Shown: in pieces, positions 2,467-38,767 of the stretch
Layout of the letters: each line of letters opens with the position of its first letter
How positions within the stretch are numbered: the stretch's first letter is position 1
Assembly (NCBI GenBank): GCA_019358915.1
Contig: JAHHIM010000038.1
Coordinates: 1 to 43,901 of the forward strand
Direction of reading: 5' to 3'
DNA length: 43,901 nt
Source of the DNA: Trichormus sp. ATA11-4-KO1
Lineage (GTDB): Bacteria > Cyanobacteriota > Cyanobacteriia > Cyanobacteriales > Nostocaceae
Notes under the pieces: model-generated
Seen by the model: only the letters and a program-made list of their open reading frames with translations
Database searches by the model: none
Told to the model about the DNA's origin: nothing
Position numbers and translations under genes: made by a program

Positions 2467-5400
2467 TTGAAAATTATGACACTAAAACTTAAACACTGTG
2501 ATGCTAGGCTCAATCAATGGATTCACATAGATGGCGATAACAAGAATCCTGAATCAATTTTAACTGAAGAATTAGATAATACACTACTTGAATCATACTT
2601 TCCAAATAAAGATTTTTCATTTGGATATGCAGATGAATATAGTAAACCAGATGATTTACGAAATCATCCAGATGGTCATATTCTTCTGCTATCTTCAAAA
2701 ACTCGATTACTCTACGGCCCATCAGAATGTTTGGAAGTAATTGAAAAACTTTGCCCAGATCGTAAAGACCGAAGTGGTTACGGCTCTATCTTTCTTGGTG
2801 CTTGTAAAAATTCAATCAGTGAACAGCTAAATATTCTGGTAGTAGATGATTCAACTGATGGAAAGGGAGAAAACGGAGGAATACTTAACAATAAAAATGC
2901 TTGGAAACTGGTAGGAGATTGCTATGGTCAAATTTCCACTGAATTATATGATAAATTAACCAAAAGAAACGAACAAGAAGATAAAAGTTATCGGGTAATT
3001 CAACATCGTTTTGGCTGGAAAGAGCAAAGTGGAGAAGATACTAAGTATCGCTTTGGTAAAGGGACACTGCGACCCTACAACCTGGATAGCATAGAATATG
3101 CTAATCCTAGCAATGAACCCAAAATTGACCTGATTATCCCCATCTCTAGTTTCAAAGGAACAGATAAAGATAATCCCAAAGGCCCAACTAAACCACAAAT
3201 AAAACCAGGACTATACCAGCAAAATATTTGGTTGGGTGAAAAGGCGCAATCCGAGAAGGGTAAGATGTCCATTTCGCAACTACTAGCATCTTTTCCTCAT
3301 GGACTTAAAGATTTTATTGAGGAGCTAGAAATACAAGCTCAAAAACTAGCAGAAGCTCAGAATGATCCTAGAAAGGTTGCACAAATTTATTGTGAGAAAT
3401 ACGAAAAACGTCAGGAATTAGTGAACCCGAAAAAAAATACTAATGACCTGGATGAAGATGAAGAAACTGAGAATAATACTGGAACCAACCAGTTAATGTA
3501 TAAACTCATTAAATCAGATTTGCTGGGACATAATCAACTGATAGAAACTGAGAAGATAAAACTAGAACTACAAAGATTTATTCAGAATGAATGGAAGAAT
3601 ATTGCACTTGGCAGAACTATAACTTTTGACCGGGGAATGATTATCCCATCCAAGGATTTGAAAAATGGTGAAATTTGCGTGCCTTGGATAAAACAAGATA
3701 AAAAAGTTCTTAACTTTCGCTCTCCGTTTCTAAATTCAAATGGCTTATGTGTCTCTGTTAATAAACACGTTGATGATCGTCTAGCCCCAGATGGTACAGA
3801 TTTAGAAGGAATTATTGTAGTCAACGATGAAGACCATAAACGGATAAGGTCAAGAATCACAGAGTTAGAAGCACAAGGAATTGATGTTGATTTTATAGAC
3901 CCTGCCGAAACAGAATCAGAGCGTCAGGCTAGAGATTTTGATGGCGACTGTATTGGGGTGGAAATTGCCAGTAAATATCCCAATTTCACAGCCGAAGCAG
4001 AAAAGAGAAACGAACCTGAAAATGCTTATGCTCCTACAGATAAACCCGGTAAACAATCTTTTTACGACCCTACAACTGGGGAACAACCACCCTTTGAAGT
4101 AATCGCTATCCACATGAGCGATAGAATTAGTGTGGGGATTATCAATAACCAAGTCACAGCACTAGAAGCATTAGAGTCAGAAATTGAAGTCTTCAATACT
4201 TATGGAACACTTGAGCAAAAGTCGCAATATTTAGACCAAGTTTCCAGCCATTATCAGAGTTTATTTGAACAGGAACATTATGATAAACCAAAACCAAGTA
4301 GGGCAGAATATAAGCCCTATATGCAACAGTTTGTAGCCCTGGCTGAAAATCCCAATAGAACGCCAGAAATCATGCAACAGGCGATGGATGTTAACCGTAA
4401 AATGTATCGCCAGATGATTGAAGAAGGCTGTTACCAAAACCAAATAGCCGTGGATTTATTCAAAAGTTCTAGAAAACCAGAAATGGATTTAATCAGGGAG
4501 AATAAACGTTATTTGTATAGAGATGTCTCTTATATTAAAGATAAAAAATTAAAAGTAATTTATTTAAACAATGGTATTAATACCAAAGGTTACTCACCAG
4601 TAGAATTATTAATCAACCAAACTAATAAATACTTCCACGAATCTAAACTTGAATCACGCCCGATAGTTCAGTTTCAAGATTTATTCAAGGGGGTAGAATT
4701 TACCCCACAGCAAAGGTTTTCTGCCATTCTTGCCAAGCAGGAATTTGATCAGAAATTCAATGCAGCTGTAGAGATGGAGCGACGACGGGAGACTGAGCGA
4801 GGGCCATCAGCCATAATTCAAACAAAGCAGGGGTCGCAATTAGAAATTACGAACTTGACTCGCTATGGGCATCCAGGTATTTGGAAAGGAAAATCACTCA
4901 ACATAGAAATCAAAGAAATCCCTGAGCAGTACCGCACTTGGGATCGCCCTCATCAATTAATGGCGATCGCTCAAATTGATGGGGAGATGGAAGATGGCAA
5001 ACCCAAATACCGTAAACTTGGGACAGTCAGCCAGCAGTCAGTAGAAGATTACAACCTAAAACCAGGGATGATAACTACTGGGGCTGAGGTCAAACAATTG
5101 AAGCCAGAACTCAGCAGTGAACAATTGAATTTATTGTTTCGGCAAGTTTCTAAAATTGCTTATACGTTTCATGATTCCATCCCAAAAGCTGAGAGGTTAT
5201 CGGCGGCGGCAGCAGCCTGGAATATTTCCGCCAGTAGACAGGATGAAGTGGAAAATAAGCAGCAAGATGTTAAAAAGAAGGTATCCAATTTCGCATTTTT
5301 TGCTTTCCCCAATGAAATTGTGTCACGTCTGGATGAACTGCAATTTACAGAAATGAAATTAGTGACGATTGACAATGAGGCGAACAATTTCAAAGGGAAA

Positions 5401-7218
5401 GTTTGGAACCCAGATGAGAAATATTCGGTTGAAATTAGAGGTTCTCACCATCCCCAGGATCATGAACGTCATGGTTCCCGGTTGATATTTGTGCAAGACA
5501 GTGATGGTGAATATAAAGAATTCGCCATGTTAGAGCCAAGAACGGGGCAATTACCTATTGGTACAAAGGCTCAAGTCAATATAGTACCGGGGGAAACATA
5601 TACAGCTACAGGTACTATCCAGCAACCAGGGAAAGCACCGATTGAATTTACTATTAGAGAAATCAGCAAATTTTCATATTCTGGTCAAGAATTCAATGCC
5701 CAACCAGTTAACTTGTCAATTGGTACTGTCCCGGTTCCTAATCAAGCAGTAACAATCCAGTTTGATGGCAAAACACTGGGAGAATTAGATGCTGATTCAG
5801 TTAAACAACTTGAGCAAATTAACTACCTGAAACATGGCAATCAACTCAACCTGAAATTCACACCTATTGGTGATGATAATAAAACCACAACTTTAATTGG
5901 TGAATCGCCCCAAGGAAATTTGTTAAAAATTAATAAAGTTGATATATATGATTTTCAGAAGGAATTATTTACTGATAGAGACTATAAAAAAGTCACTTTA
6001 GAAATTCCCCAATCAAAAACTAGACCCGCAGTATTTTTGGACGGTAAACCATTAGGGGTACTGCATTTCAAAAAAGACAAGGAAGCACTCAAAGAGTTAG
6101 GAGTTCTGCAATTTGGTAAACTAACTGAAGTGCCAGCCACACTACAAAGCAATTTTAGTCATACCTTTGTTAAAATTGACCCCAACACAATTGAATATCC
6201 ACAAACGTGGACTAAAGAAAGACAAGTTTTCCCAGATACTTCAACAGTAACACCGCAACAGAAGAGGGTTGAAAAAAGTGCGCCGTTGCTACAAAAAATT
6301 AAAGAACGTCCCACTATTTTGTTTACAACGCCAGAAGATAAAATGCTAGGAATAATGGGGATGGCTGTGGATAACCATAAGGTTGAAACTGTTACCCAGT
6401 GGCTCGAAAAGCAAGATGTAACTTTTACTCAAATACCAGCACAACAAGTGCCACGGGAAACTAAAAAAGGATTGGCGGTGTTTAACTTGGTTACAGCTTC
6501 CATCCCAAGACAAACTGCTGAAGCGATGACTAAAAAGTTTGGAGAAGTGATTGAGTCAGTAGATGAGTATCAGCAGAAGGTTAAATCATTACCTAATCGA
6601 CCACAAAAATTAAGCAATAATAATCCAGTTAATACATCTAATATTGACCGTTCTAATGCTGTAGTAAATTCTTCTGCTAACCCTCAATCTGATAAATTAG
6701 ACTTACCAAAAACTCAAAGTAACTCTCAGGAAAATGCCATTCAAAATACTGCAAATCAAGAACTAATAACTATTGATAAATTGAGAGATTGGTACACTTT
6801 TGCTGACAAGTTGGGTAAACCAGAACAGTATAAACAACGGATTGTGGAAGTAGGCAATCAGTTTAAATCTGGTCAACAATTATCAGATAAAGCTGTAGCA
6901 GCCATGAACAAAGATACTCAAGAATATCAATCCATTAGCCGACTGACTCAAATTGCTCAAAGAATAGGTATGGTGTGGGGGAAAGTTGAACAAGATGGTT
7001 CTACCCAAGTTCAGGGCAAAATGTATGATTTAACTTTTAACGCTGAGCGTAAAGATTTAACTATTGCTCATAAAAATGGTGAGGTGATTTTAAATTTGCA
7101 ATCGGGGAAGGTTCAAACTAATCAAGTCACACCTGAATTATTGCAAACTTTTGAAGAAGTTAATAGCCAAATTGACCAGAAAGAGAAGAAGCATAAAGAA
7201 CAGGAAGCGGAGATTTAA
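2467..7218 (+). CDS. Putative single-chain two-barrel RNA polymerase (cellular RdRP/YonO-like) with long C-terminal extension; start may be ATG 2476
   Basis: Ordered motifs GDCYGQIS, IQHRFG..GKG, FRSPFL, RDFDGD (3931-3948), VGIINN, IAVDLFKS. Confidence 0.8.
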   Translation: MKIMTLKLKHCDARLNQWIHIDGDNKNPESILTEELDNTLLESYFPNKDFSFGYADEYSKPDDLRNHPDGHILLLSSKTRLLYGPSECLEVIEKLCPDRKDRSGYGSIFLGACKNSISEQLNILVVDDSTDGKGENGGILNNKNAWKLVGDCYGQISTELYDKLTKRNEQEDKSYRVIQHRFGWKEQSGEDTKYRFGKGTLRPYNLDSIEYANPSNEPKIDLIIPISSFKGTDKDNPKGPTKPQIKPGLYQQNIWLGEKAQSEKGKMSISQLLASFPHGLKDFIEELEIQAQKLAEAQNDPRKVAQIYCEKYEKRQELVNPKKNTNDLDEDEETENNTGTNQLMYKLIKSDLLGHNQLIETEKIKLELQRFIQNEWKNIALGRTITFDRGMIIPSKDLKNGEICVPWIKQDKKVLNFRSPFLNSNGLCVSVNKHVDDRLAPDGTDLEGIIVVNDEDHKRIRSRITELEAQGIDVDFIDPAETESERQARDFDGDCIGVEIASKYPNFTAEAEKRNEPENAYAPTDKPGKQSFYDPTTGEQPPFEVIAIHMSDRISVGIINNQVTALEALESEIEVFNTYGTLEQKSQYLDQVSSHYQSLFEQEHYDKPKPSRAEYKPYMQQFVALAENPNRTPEIMQQAMDVNRKMYRQMIEEGCYQNQIAVDLFKSSRKPEMDLIRENKRYLYRDVSYIKDKKLKVIYLNNGINTKGYSPVELLINQTNKYFHESKLESRPIVQFQDLFKGVEFTPQQRFSAILAKQEFDQKFNAAVEMERRRETERGPSAIIQTKQGSQLEITNLTRYGHPGIWKGKSLNIEIKEIPEQYRTWDRPHQLMAIAQIDGEMEDGKPKYRKLGTVSQQSVEDYNLKPGMITTGAEVKQLKPELSSEQLNLLFRQVSKIAYTFHDSIPKAERLSAAAAAWNISASRQDEVENKQQDVKKKVSNFAFFAFPNEIVSRLDELQFTEMKLVTIDNEANNFKGKVWNPDEKYSVEIRGSHHPQDHERHGSRLIFVQDSDGEYKEFAMLEPRTGQLPIGTKAQVNIVPGETYTATGTIQQPGKAPIEFTIREISKFSYSGQEFNAQPVNLSIGTVPVPNQAVTIQFDGKTLGELDADSVKQLEQINYLKHGNQLNLKFTPIGDDNKTTTLIGESPQGNLLKINKVDIYDFQKELFTDRDYKKVTLEIPQSKTRPAVFLDGKPLGVLHFKKDKEALKELGVLQFGKLTEVPATLQSNFSHTFVKIDPNTIEYPQTWTKERQVFPDTSTVTPQQKRVEKSAPLLQKIKERPTILFTTPEDKMLGIMGMAVDNHKVETVTQWLEKQDVTFTQIPAQQVPRETKKGLAVFNLVTASIPRQTAEAMTKKFGEVIESVDEYQQKVKSLPNRPQKLSNNNPVNTSNIDRSNAVVNSSANPQSDKLDLPKTQSNSQENAIQNTANQELITIDKLRDWYTFADKLGKPEQYKQRIVEVGNQFKSGQQLSDKAVAAMNKDTQEYQSISRLTQIAQRIGMVWGKVEQDGSTQVQGKMYDLTFNAERKDLTIAHKNGEVILNLQSGKVQTNQVTPELLQTFEEVNSQIDQKEKKHKEQEAEI

Positions 7219-7300: not shown

Positions 7301-7416
7301 CAAGAAAGGCAGAAAGGCAGGAGGCAGAAGGGAATTCTACTTCCTGCTCTTTGCCTACGACTGGAAGGAGTAAGGGTTCCTTCTGCCCTCTGCCCTCGTA
7401 CTTCTGCCTTCTTCAA
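7301..7416 (+). mobile_element. 116-bp heptamer-armed non-autonomous element (TTAT|CAAG...TTCTTCAA)
   Basis: Inverted GGCAGAA/TTCTGCC arms; removal restores the host frame; internal core degenerate. Confidence 0.7.
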
Positions 7417-7465
7417 TATTCATGGATTAAGGTCAAGCTACTGCATACAGAAATTGAAAATAGAA

Positions 7466-7645
7466 TTGAAGAAGTCAGGAGCCAGGAGTCAGGAGTCAGA
7501 ATCAATGAGTTGGGGATTCTGACCCGCCACTCATTGTAGACCACCATATTTTTAATTTGGTGGGGGTCTTATACCCAATTATTCATCCGCCAGTCACACA
7601 GAATTCAATTCTGAATTCTGAATCCTGACTCCTGAATTCTGTTTG
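7466..7645 (-). mobile_element. 180-bp heptamer-armed IS200/IS605-like non-autonomous element (minus strand TTAT|CAAAC...TTCTTCAA)
   Basis: AGGAGTC/GACTCCT arms, conserved double-hairpin core, removal restores the host frame. Confidence 0.8.
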
Positions 7646-9261: not shown

Positions 9262-9654
9262 ACGAAGACCCACTATTTTTTGCCGACAGCATTTTCCTCA
9301 AAAGTTCAGAGAGAATCGAGTCGTTGGCAATGATTATGGGTTTATGTCTGCTGGTTTATACCTTGGCTCAACGTCAAAAAGAAGGGTGTGGGGTGCAGGG
9401 TGTGGGGTGTAGGGAAAATCAGTAGGGGCTTGAACCCACCACTGATTGAAGACCACCATACCGTAGGTTGGTGGGGGCTTGTACCCCTTTGTTTCGGGGG
9501 TAGAGTGTATCCCTACAACACGATTTTTCTTTTCTCCCTACCCCCTACACCCTACCCCCTACACCCTAGTTTTGGTCAAATCAGAACTGCACTCAGAAAA
9601 TCTAATTCCTCTCCGTAATTTCCCTCTGTGACAGTTTAGGGTGCGGAAGGTGGG
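9262..9654 (+). mobile_element. IS1634-family transposase 3' remnant with right terminal repeat
   Basis: DPLFFADSIFLKSSERIESLAMIMGLCLLVYTLAQRQ|IRTAL; end GGGTGCGGAAGGTGGG. Confidence 0.75.
9373..9574 (-). mobile_element. 202-bp heptamer-armed IS200/IS605-like non-autonomous element (minus strand TGAC|CAAAACTA...TTTTGAC)
   Basis: GGGTGTG/A and CCCTACA arms, double-hairpin core, removal rejoins LAQRQ-IRTAL. Confidence 0.85.
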
Positions 9655-11231: not shown

Positions 11232-11741
11232 TCAAAATCCTTTGTACTTGACCCATGAATTCCACACATTTAGCACTGGCTTATTTTGACTTTTGGCATA
11301 CTTAATGCAATTGCCAGTACCACCAGAAGAGCCATCATATAGTGCGAGTACTTTTGTACAATTATCTATCATGTATTCATTGCGGTTTTGCATTTTCGCA
11401 GCACTATATCCTGAACTGGAATTAGCGTACCTGCCCATTTTATCTACGCAAATAATCCGAGTACTGCACATCAGTAGATGATCGTAGCGAACCTGATCAT
11501 TATGATTCCATTTGCACTCTTGACCTTCAAAGGGGATAGCTGCAATTAGAGGAATGTTCAACTCGATAGCGGCTGTAGCCAAGGACTGATCAAATCCTAG
11601 AGCCATGCCAGAAATAACTTGATCCGGCTGAAGTCTCTCCAAAGATGCTTGGCACAGTGCTACAAGTCGAGTAAAAACTTTATTTGAATAACCACCAAGT
11701 TTTTCAGGACGGTGACCTGTACCAGCGATGATTTTAGTCAT
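11232..11741 (-). CDS. SLOG superfamily protein (YspA/DUF1273-like)
   Basis: TGHRP, SGMALGFD, RNEYMID, GGTGNC motifs. Confidence 0.85.
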   Translation of the reverse strand: MTKIIAGTGHRPEKLGGYSNKVFTRLVALCQASLERLQPDQVISGMALGFDQSLATAAIELNIPLIAAIPFEGQECKWNHNDQVRYDHLLMCSTRIICVDKMGRYANSSSGYSAAKMQNRNEYMIDNCTKVLALYDGSSGGTGNCIKYAKSQNKPVLNVWNSWVKYKGF

Positions 11742-12167: not shown

Positions 12168-13139
12168 ATGTCCACCCAAAGTTCTGATCCACTTCACGTC
12201 TACCTGCAAGAGATTGGCCGTTACCCAATGCTGACCCCAGAGCAAGAGATTACTTGCAGTAGGCAAGTGCAGCAGATGATGCTAATTGAGCAACAGAAAC
12301 ACGCCCTGATGCAAAAACTACATCGAGAGCCAACTTTGGCTGAATTGGCTGCTGATATTGACAAAAGTGAAACTGAGTTAAGCAACATTCTTCGCCAAGG
12401 TCAGCAAGCTAAACAAAAAATGATTACAGCGAATTTACGCTTGGTGGTAGCGATCGCCAAAAAGTACAAGTGGTGTAATTTGGAACTTTTGGACTTAATT
12501 CAAGAAGGTGCGATAGGTTTGCACAAAGCGGTAGAGAAGTTCGACCCCAATCGAGGTTACAGATTCTCTACCTGTGCCTATTGGTGGATTCGACAAGCAA
12601 TCATGGGAGCAGTTGCCGAAAAATCCCGTACAGTTCGTCTACCATTGCATTTGACCGATAAACTGCTGCAAATCAAGAAAATACAGCACGAAATAGCGAA
12701 AACACAGGGTCGCAGTGCCACAATCACAGAAATAGCTCAAGCTTTAGGTACACAGCCAAATCAGATTTGGGAATATCTGGGTGCATTTCGCCCACTTGTT
12801 TCTTTGGACGTGCGAATTGGGGAGGAGCGAGATACAGAACTTCAGGAAATTTTGCCTGATGAAAACATCTCTCCAGATGAGCTTCTGATTCAGGAATTTT
12901 TTCAACAAGATTTTGACAATTGGTTAGGAGCGCTCTCCCCAATCCAACAACAAGTCTTAACACTGCGGTTTGGATTGAGGAGCGATTGTGCGGAGTACAG
13001 TGCCCAAAGCAAGCTCACTGTGAAGCAAATTGGAGAAAGGCTGAATATCCCTCCATCACGAGTCAGTTATATTCAACAACAAGCGATGAAAATTCTGTAT
13101 TCTCAACAAGAACAAATACGCCCGTACTTAGCTTCTTGA
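12168..13139 (+). CDS. Group-2 sigma-70 factor (plasmid-borne)
   Basis: YLQEIGR, ANLRLVVAIAKKY, DLIQEG, KFDPNRGYRFSTCAYWWIRQ. Confidence 0.93.
   Translation: MSTQSSDPLHVYLQEIGRYPMLTPEQEITCSRQVQQMMLIEQQKHALMQKLHREPTLAELAADIDKSETELSNILRQGQQAKQKMITANLRLVVAIAKKYKWCNLELLDLIQEGAIGLHKAVEKFDPNRGYRFSTCAYWWIRQAIMGAVAEKSRTVRLPLHLTDKLLQIKKIQHEIAKTQGRSATITEIAQALGTQPNQIWEYLGAFRPLVSLDVRIGEERDTELQEILPDENISPDELLIQEFFQQDFDNWLGALSPIQQQVLTLRFGLRSDCAEYSAQSKLTVKQIGERLNIPPSRVSYIQQQAMKILYSQQEQIRPYLAS
12982..13010. repeat. 21-nt in-frame SDR-like insertion in a HIP1-like site within sigma region 4
   Basis: GCGAT[TGTGCGGAGTACAGTGCCCAA]AGC adds 7 codons after LRFGLRSD. Confidence 0.55.
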
Positions 13140-15856: not shown

Positions 15857-18800
15857 CTACACCGCCACTAACCAATCGCACACCACAGACTTGCATCCGC
15901 CTCCAAAGTTAACCCAAACCTGCCACTGGCCCACGCAGGCATTCCAGTAAGGCTCCCCATCAGCAATACCAACAGCCTCGCCAATCCTGGAGACTAGCTC
16001 AGTGTAAAACCGATCCGCGCTCTCTAACCCCTGCTGCAATCTCAGTTTTAGCCCCTTCCAGCCTTGGATAAGAGTTTGGGGAATATCATGTGTGTCAGTA
16101 ACGTGAGTTTGTAACTCTACATTATTGCTGCCTGACACCAAATCAGAATTGTGGGATGTTGTGTCAGTAACTGGCGTGATTATATCTATATTGGTGACTG
16201 ACACCGACTCTTGTTGTGATACTTCATCCCGACTCAACCATTGGCGGAAAATCAAATCACGATCATCGTTGGGTGGAACAAACTGATAAACACACTGGCG
16301 GTTTTCCCTCGCACCCAAGCGACCCACATAGTCCAGTTTCAAATCAATCTTTGCCAGTAATTTTTGAGCGATCGCAATTGGTGTGTGTTTTTCACAGATT
16401 GTCACCGCCAAGTAATTCTTAAGAACGTGCCGATGTTGAACAGCCAACGCTTTTAACTCTTGCATCTTGTCATCGGTTCCCCGCAGCATCACTCCAGGCG
16501 TAAGCAACTGCAACAGATTGAGATTTTCCAACAACATCACCGCGCTTAACATCTGCCCTTTGTTAAAATCCGGCTTCCAAACCGAATTCTCCCCAGCTTC
16601 TAATTGCGCCTTTGCTCGTTTAGCATCACGATTTATCAGATACTCCCGCCCCAGCGTCAGATAATAGTGCATCCGCAGTTGAGGATACCAGCCGTCATCA
16701 TCCTTCTCGACCAAGTTAGGAGTCACATCAATTTCATAGCGACGGGATAATTCCGTCTTGCGCTGCTGGTGTCGTTCAGTTTTGGTTTTGGCACGCTTAT
16801 CTTGCAGCTTCTTGAGTTCAGTTTGGGAAAGTTCATCAGCAGAGGCGATCGCCTGACACTCAGCAGTATATAAGTCCTTAGAAGCAGCCTTCACCTCCTC
16901 AACGACTTGCCCACTCTCATCCTCATCGATGTCATCGGCATCAATAATTGTGTACCCATCCGCTACCAACCCAGCAAGTACAGATTCTTCATACCGTCGC
17001 ATTTCAACGTTAATTACACATCCGCGTTTGCCCCAAGTCTGTAATGATTCTGGCTGAAAATTCTGGTCAATATAACTCAAATCCGCATTGTCCGCAGCTG
17101 ACAGCAGCGCAATATTCGCACGTGTTGCGCTATGTTGACTACCCAACAATACGCCCATCGATGTAGAACCATTGCCCACAGTCCCTATACCCTGCTTTCT
17201 CACCCATATATGACGGTCAACAGTTTCCCGTAACCTTGCCAACATCTGACGTACAGAGTTAACTGGTTGTACTCCCTGAAATATCCCCCAAACAGCGTCA
17301 AAATGACCTCTGATATCAATTGATACACCAGTTTCCAAACTTGGGGAAGCTATCACTAGGTCGTACTGGGTCAGAATTTCGTTAAGATGAGCGATGCAAC
17401 CAAACGCCGGATGTGAGGGATCAGCCACAGATTCGCTGTCAATTCGCAAGATTCGTAAGTGGGGAAATTTCCGCCTAAAGCGTTCTTCAAGTGCTTGTGT
17501 TCCCCATTTGGATTTGACTTTCTGGGCAGAACAACACAATAAATGATGTCCTCCAGTAGCAATTGCTTTGTCCAATGCTGCAATTAAATCTTTGGGATTT
17601 TTGCCACCGTAGTTGTAACAATTACCAGCATTGTGGCGATAGTTGTTGACGATCACGAATGGATTAACTCGACATTCCCCCGCTAGTGATAAAACATACT
17701 TAACATCATTATCTGACACATCGGCAGAAGACAGATAAATCTTGCCGTGTTCGCTGCCCAAAACATTCTGTACCAGTTGTTTAAGGTTTTTCAGGACAGA
17801 TACCCGACGTTTTTGCACCTCGGTTCCAGAGTTGAGCAGATGCCAGAAAACTTGATCGCACTCGTCTATGATGACAATATCATTCGTCCAGTCACTGGGA
17901 TTAAATCGAGCTTGGCTTTCATGATGCAGTGAATCAACACATACGCCATATCCGAGCAAGTCGCCTGTTTCGGAACCGTGAACTTCTGTAATATAGTTGA
18001 CACCGAAGCGATTACACAATGCCTCGCCCAGTTGGATGCGATGGGTGAGAATTAACACCCGTCGCCCTTGTTCATGAGCTTTCGCCACTTCACCAGACAG
18101 CCACTCGGTTTTACCCGAACCTTTGGGTGCTTTGAGGATAATCAGTTTTTCGCCTTCGGGAACAAGCAACTGATCCAGGAATCTTTGATTGAGTGCGATC
18201 GCCGGCGGATAAGTCAGCAGCGTAAATAGCTTGATTTCCCATAATTCAAGTGTTTCGGCTGTATTATAAAGTGCGTGAAAAGCGTCTTGTCCCTTGGCCA
18301 CAATAAAATCATCAACCCCTTTTTCCTGTCCAGCAGGTAAATCAATCACTCGCAGCGAACAGCCTTCATTGAAGAGCAGCCGTCCCATGCGACTGATGGC
18401 AGTTCTGACACGCTGAACTGTTTGGGGGTTATTGTCCTGGTCAAAGCAAATGTTCACTTGTCTACCTTTTGTGGCAAAGTGTTTCAGGTCGGGGATGAGA
18501 AAAGGTTTACCAATGTTTCGACTCCGCTCAACACAAGTGGCAGTACCGTACTCGTCTTGCGGGGTGCGGTATCCGCTGTTGACACCGGGCAAGGCGATCG
18601 CAGCATAACCAGCCGACAGTAATGCAGCTGCTTTTTTGGCTCCTTCGACAATTATTATTGGGACATTGTGCTTCCAAACCCAATGCCAGAAACCACCAGG
18701 ATGTTGTAGGTCTTCTTCAGTGATAGGGATACCGTAACGGTTTGAGACTTTCACCCAACTCTTGTTAGGGACTCGCAAAAAGAAAGCGCGGGTCTGTTCT

Positions 18801-19144
18801 TTGTAGGGGTGTTCGTACTTGATGAACTTGTGGATCTTTTGGTGATCGCGTCGAGGATGATCTGGTTTGAAGCAACCCCACATCATTGATACATAATTAT
18901 TCAACGGATCAACACCCGAACACCACCAGCCCTCCAGTTCGATATGCTGGTATTTCTTCAAGTCCCTGTCTCGTAGCCGTCCATCGTTACGGCGGGATAT
19001 TTTGGGGCTGTAGAGCAGATATTCGTAGGGTGAAGTACCAGAGAGCGATCGCACATTCAGGGCAATTATTTCTTCGTCAACCCCACTGTCTAGCCATTCT
19101 TGTAAGTGCTTGGATATCATATCCCCTCCAATATTTTTACGCAT
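15857..19144 (-). CDS. Plasmid replication protein, CyRepA1 family (DUF3854 TOPRIM-like plus helicase-like domain)
   Basis: KYEHP, IVEGAKKA, FDQD, KGVDD, APKGSGKT, IIDECDQ, SPSLETGVSID. Confidence 0.9.
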   Translation of the reverse strand: MRKNIGGDMISKHLQEWLDSGVDEEIIALNVRSLSGTSPYEYLLYSPKISRRNDGRLRDRDLKKYQHIELEGWWCSGVDPLNNYVSMMWGCFKPDHPRRDHQKIHKFIKYEHPYKEQTRAFFLRVPNKSWVKVSNRYGIPITEEDLQHPGGFWHWVWKHNVPIIIVEGAKKAAALLSAGYAAIALPGVNSGYRTPQDEYGTATCVERSRNIGKPFLIPDLKHFATKGRQVNICFDQDNNPQTVQRVRTAISRMGRLLFNEGCSLRVIDLPAGQEKGVDDFIVAKGQDAFHALYNTAETLELWEIKLFTLLTYPPAIALNQRFLDQLLVPEGEKLIILKAPKGSGKTEWLSGEVAKAHEQGRRVLILTHRIQLGEALCNRFGVNYITEVHGSETGDLLGYGVCVDSLHHESQARFNPSDWTNDIVIIDECDQVFWHLLNSGTEVQKRRVSVLKNLKQLVQNVLGSEHGKIYLSSADVSDNDVKYVLSLAGECRVNPFVIVNNYRHNAGNCYNYGGKNPKDLIAALDKAIATGGHHLLCCSAQKVKSKWGTQALEERFRRKFPHLRILRIDSESVADPSHPAFGCIAHLNEILTQYDLVIASPSLETGVSIDIRGHFDAVWGIFQGVQPVNSVRQMLARLRETVDRHIWVRKQGIGTVGNGSTSMGVLLGSQHSATRANIALLSAADNADLSYIDQNFQPESLQTWGKRGCVINVEMRRYEESVLAGLVADGYTIIDADDIDEDESGQVVEEVKAASKDLYTAECQAIASADELSQTELKKLQDKRAKTKTERHQQRKTELSRRYEIDVTPNLVEKDDDGWYPQLRMHYYLTLGREYLINRDAKRAKAQLEAGENSVWKPDFNKGQMLSAVMLLENLNLLQLLTPGVMLRGTDDKMQELKALAVQHRHVLKNYLAVTICEKHTPIAIAQKLLAKIDLKLDYVGRLGARENRQCVYQFVPPNDDRDLIFRQWLSRDEVSQQESVSVTNIDIITPVTDTTSHNSDLVSGSNNVELQTHVTDTHDIPQTLIQGWKGLKLRLQQGLESADRFYTELVSRIGEAVGIADGEPYWNACVGQWQVWVNFGGGCKSVVCDWLVAV
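18515..18538. repeat. 24-nt in-frame SDR1-like insertion in rep
   Basis: GTTTCGACTCCGCTCAACACAAGT encodes extra TCVERSRN between EYGTA and IGKP. Confidence 0.7.
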
Positions 19145-27946: not shown

Positions 27947-30100
27947 TTAATTTACCTTCACTGGCAACTCCCCAAAACTTGGACTCCACCATCCTTTCGC
28001 TGTATTGAAATAAGCCACATCCTTGTGTTTTTTATCCTGACGAGACTGAGGATCTGAACACCGGAGCATTGTCTTCTGCTGTCCATCTTTAGTATAAATG
28101 TACTCCTCTAAAAGCTTCTGACACACAGGGCAAGGATGCGAAGTTATCTTAGCTGGAGCTTTTGGTTCGCTGTCCTGGCTACGGGGTGCTTCCCAGGTCT
28201 TAGAGCGATCGCTCCAAAACAGCACCACATTCTCGCAACCACTGGTACATTTAAGGAAATACTTTTTCTTGACCTTAGTGCTGGGTATTTTTGACATCAA
28301 ACTATTGCACTGTGGGCAATGAGTTCTAGAAGTTTCAAACTTACGCTCAACAGAAGCTGTACCATTTGATGCACCCGCAACTAGGAATTTAGCTTTGGAG
28401 AGCGCAGGTACAAAGTAATCCTGATTCCAAGTGCTGAGATATTGCTGCCAACCTTGCTTACCTTCTGCTATTGCATCCAGTGCATCTTCCATTTTGGCGG
28501 TAAACTCTGCTTCCAGTAAATCTGGCAACGCTTTCTGCAAAAACGCATCCACCTCCAAACCCAAAGCTGTTGGTTGCAGATTATCTTTTTTCAATTCTAC
28601 ATAATCGCGCTTCTTGAGAGTAGCAACAGTGGGAGCATAAGTGCTGGGTCTACCAATACCTTTGCGTTCCATCAACTGTACAAGTTTTGGTTCACTGTAG
28701 CGTGGCGGCGGCTGGGTTTGTTTTTTCTCATGGGCTGCATTCGCCAGAGTGAGTGCCTGTCCCTGTTGTAACAAAGGTAACTCTGAATCCTTGCTGAGAT
28801 TATTCCAATATCGAGCGTACCCGTAGAACTCAATCACCTGCCCCCTGGCTTGCCACAGCAGATTTCCTGACTGGGTGATGACTTGAGTTTTTCTCAGTTG
28901 AGCCGCTTTGCACTGGGAAGCAACAGCACGTTTCCAAATCAACACATACAGATTGAATTCATCAGAGGGCAGTTCTTCCCGCAGCTGTGCTGAAGGGCGA
29001 AAAACATCTGTCGGACGAATAGCCTCATGTGCTTCTTGCGCTGACTTGCTGCTACGGTGTTTTGCTACTTGCTGGGGTACATTTGATGGGTCATTCTGCT
29101 CCAACCATTGCCGCGCGCTGGCACAAAATTCGGGACTCAGCATCACTGAATCTGCTCGCATATATGTAATCAACCCAGCTTCATACAGCTTTTGGGCTAC
29201 CTGCATAGTTTTATCTGGGGAAAATCTCATTTTGGAACCGGCGGCTTGTTGGAGGGTAGAAGTTGTGAATGGTGGAGGTGGTTGACGATTAACTGTTTTA
29301 CCTTCGATGTGGATAATTTTGTGAGGATGTTGCCTTGCTTGTTCAACTAACCGTGTCGCCTCAGCTTCAGATAAAACACGTTTAGATTCGGGTGTTTTTG
29401 TAGCATTTGGGTTGGCATCATCATTAGTGTCAGTTTCTTCCTGCTGCGTTTCCTGGCGAGAGTCTGTCGTACCTTTGTAAAAAGCCCGAAATCCTTCAGC
29501 GTAGTCCACGAAGACATTCCAATAGTCTTGGGGGACAAATGTCTGAATTTCTCTTTCTCGCTGGCAAATGAGGTGTAGGGTTGCACTTTGGACTCTACCA
29601 ACACTTTTGGCTCCGTTGTTCAATGCCCAAACCAGAGGACTGCCTTTGTACCCTACCAACTTATCTAAGCAATCCCGACACAGCCCCGCACCCACCAAGT
29701 TGAAATCGAGTTTTCTGGAGTTGGCAATTGCTGCTCGAACTGCTGCTGCTGTAATCTCCGTATACACCACTCGCTTTGGTTCTTTGAGTCCTAGCACTTC
29801 CTTGAGATGCCAAGCGATTGTCTCACCTTCTCGGTCTGGGTCTGTTGCCAAAACCACTTCATCAACCTGCTTGACCGCAGACTTGAGTTTCTGGATGGTT
29901 TCTTTAGCTCGTTGATCACGAGGGATATAATTGCACTTCACACGACTGCCATCTATGCTGAATCCTAGTGAATCATCGCCCTCATTACTCAGTTCTCGGA
30001 TGTGACCACAACTGGCGCGGACGATCCAATCTGCACCCAGAATTTGACTAAGTTTTTTGACTTTACCGGGGGATTCGACCACAAGAAGACGTTTGGTCAT
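27947..30100 (-). CDS. topA: Type IA DNA topoisomerase (plasmid)
   Basis: VVESPGK, GHI, ATDPDREGE, SVGRVQS, LITYMRAD, QEAHEAIRPT, GIGRPST, C-terminal Zn ribbons. Confidence 0.95.
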   Translation of the reverse strand: MTKRLLVVESPGKVKKLSQILGADWIVRASCGHIRELSNEGDDSLGFSIDGSRVKCNYIPRDQRAKETIQKLKSAVKQVDEVVLATDPDREGETIAWHLKEVLGLKEPKRVVYTEITAAAVRAAIANSRKLDFNLVGAGLCRDCLDKLVGYKGSPLVWALNNGAKSVGRVQSATLHLICQREREIQTFVPQDYWNVFVDYAEGFRAFYKGTTDSRQETQQEETDTNDDANPNATKTPESKRVLSEAEATRLVEQARQHPHKIIHIEGKTVNRQPPPPFTTSTLQQAAGSKMRFSPDKTMQVAQKLYEAGLITYMRADSVMLSPEFCASARQWLEQNDPSNVPQQVAKHRSSKSAQEAHEAIRPTDVFRPSAQLREELPSDEFNLYVLIWKRAVASQCKAAQLRKTQVITQSGNLLWQARGQVIEFYGYARYWNNLSKDSELPLLQQGQALTLANAAHEKKQTQPPPRYSEPKLVQLMERKGIGRPSTYAPTVATLKKRDYVELKKDNLQPTALGLEVDAFLQKALPDLLEAEFTAKMEDALDAIAEGKQGWQQYLSTWNQDYFVPALSKAKFLVAGASNGTASVERKFETSRTHCPQCNSLMSKIPSTKVKKKYFLKCTSGCENVVLFWSDRSKTWEAPRSQDSEPKAPAKITSHPCPVCQKLLEEYIYTKDGQQKTMLRCSDPQSRQDKKHKDVAYFNTAKGWWSPSFGELPVKVN

Positions 30101-31344: not shown

Positions 31345-31540
31345 ATGTCCAGCCTGAGTCCAGACATCAGGGCGAACGCACGGTATTTCTAAAACCCTTG
31401 CTGGGTAAGGTTATTGACGAAAAAATAGGGTAAATTAAAAAATGCCGAAACCCTTGCTATTAAAGGATTCTTATACTTTAGATGCGTTTGCCCTGGTCCA
31501 GACATGGTTCGTATCTATTTGCAGGAGATTGGTCGAATCG
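31345..31540 (+). pseudogene. N-terminal remnant of a second group-2 sigma factor, interrupted by a MITE
   Basis: MSSLSPD|MVRIYLQEIGR after removing the MITE and one TSD copy. Confidence 0.7.
31368..31495. mobile_element. 128-bp MITE with TIRs and 10-bp target duplication (IS4-like)
   Basis: TIR CAGGGCGAACGCA / TGCGTTTGCCCTG; TSD GTCCAGACAT at 31358-31367 and 31496-31505. Confidence 0.9.
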
Positions 31541-31616
31541 GATTGTGTTTGGGGGGTGTATTCTCTAACCATTTGCCAATTCTCATAATTGATAACGATT
31601 TATCGAAACATTGCGT

Positions 31617-32237
31617 TTAAATAGAATGAGTTGCACCAGAGGCAAATATTTGTTGTGCTGTTAATTGCAAACTAGGAAATACTGAAGAAAAAAGCGGATC
31701 ATTATTTTGAAATAGGTGTTTATGGTACTGATCTTCTATTAACGTACAAATCGTAATTGTTGGTTGTTTAGGCTTGCCAATATATTCTCTACCGCCAATG
31801 CCCAAATAATCAACAATCCAGTATTCAGTTACTCCTAACAAAGCATAATCTTCAACTTTACGAGCATAGTCATTCTGCCAGTTTGTACTGACAACTTCAG
31901 CTATTAATTTGATTGATTTTCCTAATGTAATTACAGGTTCTTTTTGCCAGAGTGGTTCATTAATCAGTTGCATTTGGTCTAACACAACCACATCGGGACG
32001 AAAAGCTGTGTTTGTCCCTAGCAATTTAATTAGACAGCGATGGGGAATAACATAGGATACTTCTTGGCGGTCGATTTCAACATTTAATTTTCGCCCAATA
32101 AAACCAGATACTTGCTCATGTGGCCCAGTGGGTTCCATGTCTACTAATTCCCCATCAATTAATTCATAACGAGTGCTATCACCATAGTTGGTAATGAATT
32201 CATCAACAGTTAAAAGTTTTGGTGCGAATTGAACCAT
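31617..32237 (-). CDS. Uma2-family (DUF820) endonuclease-like protein
   Basis: RYELIDG, RPDVVV, AEVVS, DY..K..Y...G..EYWIVD. Confidence 0.92.
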   Translation of the reverse strand: MVQFAPKLLTVDEFITNYGDSTRYELIDGELVDMEPTGPHEQVSGFIGRKLNVEIDRQEVSYVIPHRCLIKLLGTNTAFRPDVVVLDQMQLINEPLWQKEPVITLGKSIKLIAEVVSTNWQNDYARKVEDYALLGVTEYWIVDYLGIGGREYIGKPKQPTITICTLIEDQYHKHLFQNNDPLFSSVFPSLQLTAQQIFASGATHSI

Positions 32238-33377: not shown

Positions 33378-33782
33378 TAATTCGTAATTCGTAATTCGTA
33401 ATTATTTTTCTTTGAGTTTTCTGGTTGAAGCGGTTAAAATTTTTCCTATTTCATTTGCCTCTGTCAAAAGTAAGGTAAATTTTTGCTGTTCTACTAGTTC
33501 AGATTCGATTAATATTTCTAACCAGTATTGGGTTTCTCTTGCCTCCTTTAACGCGATTTCTAATTTGTTAATAAAATCTTTGTCAGATTGGGCTGATTGT
33601 GCTTCTCGACAATTTGCACCTATTGAAGTTCCAGAACGAAGCAGTTGTTTAGACAAAGTTCTTAAAACTCCAGACTTTTCATCCAGAAAACAACAAGCTT
33701 TAATAATTCTGACCGCAAATGCTTTAGTTCTATGCGTTATGCTAGTTTTCATCTTCAATTACGAATTACGACTTACGAATTA
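33378..33782. repeat. Inverted TAATTCG arrays enclosing copy A
   Basis: 33378-33403 vs 33757-33782, 25/26 complementary. Confidence 0.9.
33402..33752 (-). CDS. Four-helix-bundle protein (23S rRNA IVP / Avd-like), copy A
   Basis: KQLLRSGTSIGANCREA..SDKDFINKLEIALKEARETQYWL. Confidence 0.92.
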   Translation of the reverse strand: MKTSITHRTKAFAVRIIKACCFLDEKSGVLRTLSKQLLRSGTSIGANCREAQSAQSDKDFINKLEIALKEARETQYWLEILIESELVEQQKFTLLLTEANEIGKILTASTRKLKEK

Positions 33783-35369
33783 ACTAGGGATATTCTCAAA
33801 TCGATAAGCCTGAAAACGTCTATCCAACAACCCAGACTGCACAATCCCATCGCCACGACCTTGCAGAGATGTCACGGCTTCCCCCCGCCGCATCAGCACC
33901 ATCCGACCACTGACAGCATCCACACAGCGAAACGCAATCCTACAAGGCAAGTTATCACGTAAATCTGGGGGTAATCCTTGCGGATCTTCTTTTCCTCTCT
34001 TAGCTCCGCGTTGCAGCCCGACAACAACATGAATCTTTAGTCCTCTCCCCCGGCGACCAACTTCACACAATTGCTGATCGTAAGTTCGCCTTTGTTTATC
34101 ATCCAGTGGCACAGTACCTTTGTACTCATCAATGAATAACACCCAAGGTTGCTCAAGGGCTAGTTCAGCTTTGGTCATCGAGTTTCTGCGATCGCACTCC
34201 TGAAAATACTCACCCACAAACTCAAAAGTTTTACCCATGTCGTTCATCGTGATTGTGGGGAAACGATCCGCGAAATCCTCATAATCCGAAACTTTACCAC
34301 CGCAAACATCCACCCGCGCACCTTGCATGAGCAAACAGTAGGCAGCAGCGCGAAAGAAGTTAGACTTACCAGAACCAGTAGTGCCGACTACTAATAATTG
34401 CGGGGTGTCCTCACTGGCTAAATCAATAGTCACCTCACCATCCAGGGATTGACCTAGTACAATTAGCCTTTCTCTTTGGTTCCATTGCCGCACAGGGAAG
34501 TCGTAGTAAGTGCGGTCTTCTGGTTTCAAGGGAATTTCTACAGCTATCTGTTCAGGCGCATATATATAGAAAGGTAAATCACTAGCAGTTACTCCCAGAG
34601 CTAGTTTTGCCGCCGCTTTAAATTTACTCAGTGAGTTAAAATCTTCAGTTCTCACTGAAAATATCAGTCTCTCGTAGCTGGGTGCTTTGTCAACTCTTAA
34701 GCATTGAGTTTCTAGTCCAACTACCTTGGCTGCTTTTCTCAAGCCTTCCATTTTTGGTGATGAGGTTGGCTCAGTAGATACTGCTGTACTAGGAGTAGCC
34801 ACCGTCACCACTTCCGCATTAGCACTTTTGAGTGCCTGCTGTGCGTGTTGAGCTTGCAGTTCCAACTGGCGTTGATGAATTTGGGCTTGCACTTTTGCTT
34901 GCTCCAGTTGCATTTCTGCCTCTGAGGTTGCCAGCAATACATTCCCCAGGGATTCCCCATTTTGGATCATGCCCAAGGCCATGCGATTGACCGCCCCACT
35001 CTGTCCAGTAACTGTCAGCACTTCACTGAACAAGGGTGCTGTTTGTTGTAGTAGTTTCAGTTGCCGTTCAGTATCCTTGTCCGATTCCTCATACAACCGT
35101 TTCCTTTCCGCAGCACTAGTTAGATATTGCAGTTGCTCCTCTGCCTGAGTGTCCTTCAAGGCAGCCAGCATATCTTCTTGTCGCTCTTGGTCTTCGTAAT
35201 ATCTTTGTAGTTTTCGTATGGACACACCTGCATAACTGGAGAGTGCCATCGCTGTTAAATTTGCAGGTATGAATAGTTTTAATTCTTTGGGGTCAGAGGA
35301 TAGCGTTAGCACCACCGCCACTATTCCACTTGCCCCAATTCTTAACCAAGGAAGTAACATTTCAACCAC
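33780..35369 (-). CDS. FtsK/SpoIIIE-family ATPase with N-terminal TM segment and coiled coil
   Basis: LLVVGTTGSGKS, LFIDE, GRGLKIHVVVGLQR, LQGRGDG. Confidence 0.88.
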   Translation of the reverse strand: MVEMLLPWLRIGASGIVAVVLTLSSDPKELKLFIPANLTAMALSSYAGVSIRKLQRYYEDQERQEDMLAALKDTQAEEQLQYLTSAAERKRLYEESDKDTERQLKLLQQTAPLFSEVLTVTGQSGAVNRMALGMIQNGESLGNVLLATSEAEMQLEQAKVQAQIHQRQLELQAQHAQQALKSANAEVVTVATPSTAVSTEPTSSPKMEGLRKAAKVVGLETQCLRVDKAPSYERLIFSVRTEDFNSLSKFKAAAKLALGVTASDLPFYIYAPEQIAVEIPLKPEDRTYYDFPVRQWNQRERLIVLGQSLDGEVTIDLASEDTPQLLVVGTTGSGKSNFFRAAAYCLLMQGARVDVCGGKVSDYEDFADRFPTITMNDMGKTFEFVGEYFQECDRRNSMTKAELALEQPWVLFIDEYKGTVPLDDKQRRTYDQQLCEVGRRGRGLKIHVVVGLQRGAKRGKEDPQGLPPDLRDNLPCRIAFRCVDAVSGRMVLMRRGEAVTSLQGRGDGIVQSGLLDRRFQAYRFENIPS

Positions 35370-35611: not shown

Positions 35612-36125
35612 TTAACGTTTTATTAGCCAAGGTGATGGATTATTGATTATGGTTACTAAAATACCTAGAACTTTGTTATAAGTTCCATATAATTCCCTAC
35701 CTGTTTCAACATCTAAATAGCCGCATTTCACTGCAAATTTTAGCCATGTTTGTGTTTCTGCGGACTCTGCTTCACAGTCATTTAATTTAGCGATAAAAGC
35801 AGCTTCGTAGCGTCGCTTTCTCCATGCTTCTGCCATATTTGCACAAACAGAACGAGATGATCTACGAATTTGATCTGTTAATGAGTATCTTTCTTCAATA
35901 GGGAATTTCTTAGATAGGTCAAAAATTCTCATTGCGACATCAAATGCCATTTTATAAACTTCTAAGTCCTCATGGTTTTTTATTTATGAAAAAAAAGTTA
36001 GGTTCAAAACCTCGCCCCTTGTGGGCGAAACAGTCCTTGTATCCCAAGGTAGGTAGAAACCCCACCCCTTGTGGGTGGCTGTATTTAATTTTGAATTTTG
36101 AATTTTGAATTTTGAATTGATTCAT
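35612..36125 (-). pseudogene. Four-helix-bundle protein copy B; 5' end interrupted (an ORF remains from ATG 35950)
   Basis: MNQ|IKNHEDLEVYKMAF..FPIEERYSLTDQIRRSSRSVCANMAEAW. Confidence 0.85.
35984..36116 (+). mobile_element. ~130-bp double-hairpin element with an AATTTTG array (boundaries approximate)
   Basis: GGTTCAAAACCT-CGCCCCTTGTGGGCG and GGTAGAAACC-CCACCCCTTGTGGGTGG. Confidence 0.7.

Positions 36126-38344: not shown

Positions 38345-38767
<423 letters not shown>

Follow-up and report, generated by a model that had tools for sequence, protein, structure and literature searches.

A cyanobacterial single-chain two-barrel RNA polymerase with a head-to-head partner gene and a probable tie to plasmid conjugation

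The 43,901-bp contig JAHHIM010000038.1 of Trichormus sp. ATA11-4-KO1, analyzed here in its entirety and referred to as the window, is one of 73 contigs in its genome assembly and encodes, near its left end, a large protein that is almost certainly a single-chain two-barrel RNA polymerase. The open reading frame is uninterrupted from position 2467 to 7218 of the plus strand and comprises 1,583 amino acids (aa) when counted from the in-frame TTG 2467, from which residues are numbered throughout. ATG 2476 is the likelier start because homologues begin with M-x-L-x-x-x-H-F-D at that place; the gene would then occupy 2476-7218 and encode 1,580 aa. Head-to-head with it, on the minus strand (1909-2439), lies a gene for an acidic 176-aa protein (isoelectric point 5.05) with an internal repeat, denoted the partner. 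The two start codons are separated by an AT-rich spacer of 36 bp (2440-2475), in which a minus-strand AGGAGG ribosome-binding site serves the partner; none was found for the polymerase. A promoter scan yielded 6 sites, compared to 3.2 +/- 1.8 in shuffled sequences. Searches of Pfam, PHROGs, NCBIfam, PADLOC and, with single sequences, PDB produced no match to either protein. A search of Rfam gave no match, and no notable repeat family was found close to the polymerase gene.

An earlier note on this DNA had listed seven motifs in the reading frame, and all of them are present, in the order and at the places given there: GDCYGQIS at aa 150 (nucleotide 2914), IQHRFG at aa 178, RFGKG at aa 195, FRSPFL at aa 417 (nucleotide 3715), RDFDGD at aa 489-494, VGIINN at aa 556 and IAVDLFKS at aa 660. 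Judged by sequence, the set is beyond chance. Among the 81 distant representatives with a length of 1,150 aa or more, the DxDGD pattern recurs in 77. The motifs fall within the polymerase core (aa 4-760; 2476-4746, plus strand), which consists of two barrels, a connector and a helical region that contains the GxIxN and AVDxxKS motifs. An AlphaFold2 model of aa 4-798 reached a mean predicted local distance difference test (pLDDT) of 92.2 and a predicted template modelling score (pTM) of 0.89, and fold-search alignments cover model residues ~1-735. The top Foldseek ranks are RDR2 (E 4.9e-10) and QDE-1 (E 1.7e-9), followed by polymerases of Thermus phages and phi14:2 gp66 (E 2.7e-5). Comparison with VIA gave Z 18.0 for gp64 of phage P32 (root mean square deviation (rmsd) 4.1, 442 residues aligned), Z 17.9 for RDR2 (rmsd 4.8, 493 aligned) and Z 14.2 for QDE-1 (rmsd 4.2, 515 aligned); the top rows of both searches are two-barrel polymerases throughout. 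Sequence identity of the core to the matched solved polymerases is only 8-14%. The profile of the family alignment A2, which consists of 77 rows hand-picked from the homologue searches, gave 25 PDB rows; 23 of these are RNA polymerase largest subunits, with E values no better than 0.16-1.5, and the profile aligns to the RxP and DFDGD motifs of beta-prime. The two-barrel fold that had been claimed from the letters of the sequence is thus borne out by the model.

Eight residues, D709, R738, K743, R962, P964, D1007, D1009 and D1011 of QDE-1, have been described as invariant (PMC2919709). Mapped by motif order rather than by structural residue pairs, they correspond in the Trichormus protein to D151, R181 and K198 of the first barrel (motifs at 2914-3063, plus strand), and to R418, P420 and the catalytic D490, D492 and D494 of the second (3715-3948, plus strand). 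Among the non-gap rows of A2, conservation is 65/65 for D151, 68/69 for R181, 69/69 for K198, 76/76 for R418 and P420, and 77/77 for each of the three aspartates, as the earlier note had anticipated in considering them intact. The eight residues are retained down to ~25% overall identity among homologues. The count of 77 in 81 does not depend on the choice of rows in A2. Three of the four distant representatives that miss the DxDGD pattern contain, in alignment A1, DxDGD with a different second letter; the fourth, P0234, is likely a low-complexity match (20 stretches) and was left out of later counts. We looked for an absence of double-psi beta-barrels from the model and for a lack of DFDGD conservation among homologues, and neither was seen. 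From these conserved residues, we infer that the polymerase is catalytically intact and active.

The core is followed by four beta-rich repeats of ~90 aa (4786-6162, plus strand; aa 774-880, 956-1040, 1042-1135 and 1139-1232), the first of which precedes a helical insert, and then by an alpha/beta domain, a disordered linker rich in N, Q and S (aa 1381-1431; 6607-6759, plus strand; pLDDT below 50 over model residues 608-658) and a tail domain (6766-7218, plus strand) composed of three helices, a beta-meander and a last helix. The repeats resemble each other in hhalign comparisons (probability 99% for repeats 3 and 4, 92% for repeat 1 against 3 and against 4, and 61-81% for repeat 2), and at least one repeat is present in 75 of 80 distant representatives, the repeat profiles having been built partly from those same sequences. 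The AlphaFold2 model of the C-terminal half, in which the domains were not folded singly, has pLDDT 83 and pTM 0.45; it had no Foldseek match at E <=0.001, and its best VIA match has Z 6.0. The segment aa 1093-1181 yielded VIA rows of just Z 2.5-4.7, to proteins that presumably hold OB-type barrels. The repeats are candidate nucleic-acid-binding barrels. Their identity as HIRAN domains was considered and is unsupported by profile comparison (hhalign probability <=2.5%); the single VIA row to a HIRAN protein (3K2Y; Z 5.1, rmsd 3.3, 80 aligned) is in the noise range. The ESM Atlas returned nothing for the repeats and, for the tail, a lead of 0.84 to 'mobilization protein' fragments.

The tail is a candidate transfer signal region and is clade-restricted, with 9 occurrences among the 80 distant representatives. 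Its profile does not match the tested relaxases (best E 0.02), and the resemblance of these polymerases to relaxases is therefore limited to the last residues. An end pattern, [GDE][LIMFV]x[LRQK], drawn by eye from 14 of 20 relaxases in a set of related sequences, is found at the end of 71 of the 92 close polymerases and of 11 of the 80 distant ones, compared to 39 of 2,182 background frames and none of 120 partners. The variable domains of relatives include RNase H, a RecD-like helicase, SLOG types (cpYpsA and YAcAr), NADAR and DUF4326, and one relative has Prim-Pol/PriCT-2 at its N-terminus. Such added domains were identified in 11 of 48 relatives scanned, with one weak PLU-1 match excluded. 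A tblastn search of the window detected none of these variable domains, apart from a separate YpsA SLOG gene known from the annotation, and the Trichormus polymerase has no detectable RNase H, SLOG, helicase or Prim-Pol domain. On the Gloeothece plasmid Cy782202 (L072; 6571-15662), a homologue fused to RNase H is immediately preceded by genes for dnaN, dnaX, holA, delta-prime and ssb.

No relative of the partner was found among solved structures by sequence, and it belongs to no known family. A single-sequence search covered 48 polymerase loci, three of them with little or no upstream sequence, and detected partner homologues at 23, the window counted. In the reverse direction, a polymerase gene lies head-to-head within 1.5 kb in 20 of 26 partner-family loci, and within 100 bp in 17 of these; two of the six loci without a facing polymerase are frames with an internal stop. 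Five more polymerase loci contain, in the partner position, an open reading frame for an acidic protein of 63-70 aa, tied to the family by eye via locus L030. The 70-aa forms of L032 and L034 end in EGIPF, which we take to be reminiscent of the tails of single-stranded DNA-binding proteins (SSB). Several distant polymerase loci lack a partner. The partner is predicted to bind the polymerase: the modelled complex scored 0.83, compared to 0.00 for the best control. Of 157 solved pairs, 116 reach the mark used, as do 2 of 215 mismatched ones; these figures are only a rough guide for the present alignments. Separate runs share at least 63% of contacts, with a partner pLDDT of at least 76. Because the partner has no solved relative by sequence, this result is unlikely to come from model memory. 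The predicted interface brings acidic loops of both barrels up against basic residues on the partner side.

With aa 60-760 as the query, 332 of 7,999 scored candidates were identified as homologues, and the best 120 of these 332 are 72-79% identical to the Trichormus protein, itself aside; among the matches listed, those with a source name come from Nostoc and related cyanobacteria. A representative search yielded 237 homologues, the best 150 of which were listed. Homologues were found in 85 of 72,556 plasmid records; all 78 of these that were listed are cyanobacterial, and the plasmids are at least 135 kb in all 60 for which this was listed. Within the phylum, the polymerase was matched in 37 of 401 genomes, every one in the order of the Trichormus window; this search used one query, and distant members may escape it. 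No match was obtained with tblastn in 50,697 phage records or in PHROGs. Several polymerase plasmids can coexist in one strain. Nostoc PCC 7120 encodes one homologue on plasmid alpha, with a partner, and another, alr7649, on plasmid beta, without. In G127:C1, G543:C1 and G595:C1, copies of the polymerase or the partner are located megabases or hundreds of kb into the first contig, where they are perhaps integrated elements.

The earlier note had stated that this family was noticed computationally, and this is correct. A 2010 survey (Ruprich-Robert & Thuriaux, PMC2919709, section 8 and supplement) listed the cyanobacterial proteins as YonO-like group IV and called the role of the group an enigma; cyanobacterial versions with RNase H were subsequently noted and a primase role suggested (Aravind et al. 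2012, PMC3417536). When compared by eye, the motif strings given in the supplement of PMC2919709 for Cyanothece ATCC 51142 recur in homologues of the Trichormus protein, P0181 (E 2e-65) being one example, and by these motifs the polymerase belongs to group IV. The passages on the family in PMC2919709 and PMC3417536 assign it to 'main genomes' or to selfish elements and are silent on a relaxase link, a partner or repeats, and the plasmid context may be covered in earlier work or in the supplement. The sections consulted of PMC7824862, PMC5512222 and PMC7598289 hold nothing specific to the family. A literature search, with most subscription papers outside it, found no functional test of any cyanobacterial member; alr7649 appears there solely as the host of a binding site.

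The genomic context makes it likely that the polymerase is tied to conjugation. Among the 60 listed polymerase plasmids, 50 have a relaxase among the matches listed (60 per class). In 45 of these 50 plasmids, where 8.2 would be expected, the relaxase start is no more than 20 kb away from the polymerase, and in 44 the relaxase lies upstream. The relaxases are of the classes MOBV, MOBF and MOBP; 16 MOBV and 10 MOBF genes are divergent from the polymerase, and 17 MOBP and 1 MOBV genes are oriented in the same direction. Plasmids with a VirB4-like gene number 113, and of the 60 that were listed, 50 or more encode the polymerase; none of the 61 listed relaxase plasmids below 100 kb does. These comparisons cover 78 of the 85 plasmid records with the polymerase. 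The plasmids surveyed are kin, so that these counts are not independent. In the window, which begins 2.4 kb upstream of the polymerase gene, a partial VirD4/TraM-like coupling-protein homologue is located at 1010-1912 of the plus strand (~250 of 587 residues matched, tblastn E 3e-36); the coupling-protein query itself matches VirD4/TraD models below their cut-offs. Complete transfer genes are found on other contigs of the genome, which could not be joined to the polymerase contig. One of these, C43 (G000), contains a transfer region with VirB4-like, VirD4-like, MobV and ParM genes and, after it, at ~31,430-31,630, a short remnant of a polymerase tail (E 1.5e-7); tblastn with the full polymerase detected no core on C43.

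A plasmid origin of the contig is suggested by the CyRepA1 replication protein gene (15857-19144, minus strand; NF042913, 448 bits against a cut-off of 200) and by the homologues in 85 plasmid records; a search for terminal overlap on this linear 43.9-kb fragment found none. A sigma-70 factor gene is located 5 kb downstream of the polymerase (12168-13139), and pCC7120alpha and pNPUN01 also have a sigma-70 homologue at a distance of less than 20 kb from their polymerase gene. A stand-alone YpsA SLOG gene with a weak ShosA match (11232-11741) is 4 kb downstream. Further along are a type IA topoisomerase gene (27947-30100) and three 23S rRNA IVP/bAvd-like four-helix genes (33402-33758, 35612-35950 and 38368-38733), scattered through a series of minus-strand genes, one of which encodes an FtsK-like ATPase (33780-35369). 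Downstream of the polymerase gene, at 7381-7641 and 9391-9566, there are short tandem repeats of heptamer type that have inverted arms and presumably are of a kind common in Nostocales.

The reading we favour, tentatively and at a little under an even chance, is that of a transferred enzyme making RNA on the incoming single strand. The polymerase would belong to the set of conjugation genes on large cyanobacterial plasmids and act on the single-stranded plasmid DNA that results from transfer. The donor would produce it, and the 176-aa partner would bind it in that cell, as a chaperone or holding subunit; it would then enter the recipient by way of the type IV channel, as the SogL primase does. 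There, it would make RNA on the incoming strand, namely, second-strand primers and/or early transcripts, with no requirement for the host enzyme, while holding the template with its beta repeats. The conjugative single strand needs priming and expression once in the recipient (PMC7690428), SogL is carried into recipients by its transfer system (PMC8406263), and both gp66 and QDE-1 prefer single-stranded DNA (bioRxiv 2020.03.07.982082). It is from these precedents, together with the relaxase link, the fusions to RNase H, helicase and primase domains, and the relaxase-like ends, that we infer activity, template, transfer and product. A narrower form of this proposal, possible and somewhat less likely, is a two-gene module in which the polymerase is injected via the conjugation channel and the partner is its cognate binding protein, a plasmid counterpart of phage virion RNA polymerases, of which no description was found in the literature searched.

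Several observations weigh against transfer and synthesis on the incoming strand. The side of the relaxase varies: it is divergent from the polymerase in 26 plasmids and points in the same direction in 18, so that a leading-region position of the polymerase is not the rule in every plasmid. With the queries used, neither a relaxase nor a VirB4-like gene was found on the Trichormus contig, only the partial VirD4, and the Trichormus polymerase ends in EAEI, outside the relaxase-like end pattern. The MobF protein examined shares a region with the N-terminus of CyRepA1 (DUF3854), which we take to be primase-like; because MobF already carries this region, a second primase is perhaps unneeded. The alr7649 clade (6 loci) has no upstream partner. 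The predicted interface covers none of the eight catalytic residues and is not like an active-site plug; it is less conserved than the rest of the protein (0.66 vs 0.82 in the partner), and on the polymerase side only 16-24 of 39 interface residues are identical at 71-75% overall identity. Such a fast-changing interface, as modelled, fits cognate specificity and also weighs against a fixed, essential one. Finally, YonO, a relative, transcribes late phage genes, those of SPbeta (PMC5467207).

The precedent of YonO underlies the main rival, rather unlikely in our judgment, namely, that of a resident DNA-dependent polymerase which transcribes plasmid genes, for example, transfer operons, from double-stranded DNA, with the partner as an accessory or specificity subunit and no protein transfer. 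The gp64 and gp62 proteins of Thermus phages among the top VIA matches agree with this, as does the subunit-like position predicted for the partner, on loops of the barrels at a distance from the catalytic residues; co-occurrence with VirB4 and the missing end pattern in the Trichormus polymerase would also be accounted for. However, the relaxase-like ends of many homologues and the RNase H, helicase and Prim-Pol fusions would go unexplained, and the sigma-70 factor encoded on the same contig would be a cheaper route to redirect transcription. An effector in conflicts with competing elements or host defence, transferred or resident, seems improbable; the RNA product or the fused SLOG, NADAR or DUF4326 domain would act, the partner would be an immunity protein, and RNA-templated synthesis of double-stranded RNA would be included. 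The closest Foldseek matches, RDR2 and QDE-1, the cpYpsA, YAcAr, NADAR and DUF4326 domains in the variable tails of relatives, the coexistence of several such plasmids in one strain and a fast-evolving predicted interface, which would suit cognate-specific pairs, all point this way. Yet PADLOC matched neither protein, six loci are without an upstream partner, and the predicted interface leaves the active site uncovered.

It is quite improbable that the polymerase is a primase for the vegetative replication of large plasmids, as Aravind and colleagues proposed in general terms (PMC3417536). The size of at least 135 kb of all 60 listed plasmids and the RNase H and Prim-Pol fusions in relatives are consistent with such a role, but the polymerase follows a relaxase in 44 of 50 plasmids, and C43 persists with a tail remnant only, unless the copy on the window contig serves it in trans. 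An inactive structural or binding protein that has retained the polymerase fold is highly implausible: the lack of matches in Pfam, PHROGs and NCBIfam and the low identity to the solved polymerases would fit it, but the retention of all eight catalytic residues among remote homologues argues against it.

The partner gene, the measured tie to conjugation and the four repeats are new here, none of them having appeared in the earlier note, and together they make the polymerase a testable two-gene module. A 2014 paper reports finding no studies of cyanobacterial conjugation systems; the gene pair is a handle on these systems as well as on the enigmatic role of the family, and the homologues in Nostoc PCC 7120 make mutants and assays straightforward. 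If the favoured reading of a transferred enzyme is true, plasmids would have a new means of establishment in an RNA polymerase delivered by conjugation. A bacterial relative of the RNA interference polymerases with a known job would also bear on the origin of those enzymes.

Among known proteins, the Trichormus polymerase is akin to the published Cyanothece example of group IV, whose motif strings recur in its distant homologues; the RNase H fusion described for some members of the group is absent from it and present in homologues, and is thus optional. It shares the single-chain core and the motif order with QDE-1 and RDR2 (PDB 2J7N, 7Y7T and 7W82; Z 14.2-17.9, 493-520 residues aligned, rmsd 4.2-4.8), from which it differs in being only 10-13% identical, in its repeat and tail extension of ~820 aa and in its bacterial plasmid setting. 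The Pfam profile of eukaryotic RNA-dependent RNA polymerases was unmatched at E <=10, at which only two unrelated weak families appeared. The same core is found in phage single-chain RNA polymerases (Z 18.0 to P32 gp64, 17.6 to P74 gp62 and 13.3 to P23-45 gp96); among phage enzymes, phi14:2 gp66 prefers single-stranded DNA, and its authors infer that it enters the host with the DNA (bioRxiv 2020.03.07.982082). No row of the fold searches with the core could be identified as YonO itself. Unlike the phage polymerases, the Trichormus protein is linked to conjugation genes, not to virion genes, and has no sequence match in phage records. SogL of IncI1 and TraC of RP4 are DnaG/Toprim-type enzymes with a fold unrelated to that of two-barrel polymerases. 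They are functional analogues, large plasmid-encoded proteins of transfer systems; SogL is moved into recipients, as the Trichormus polymerase may be.

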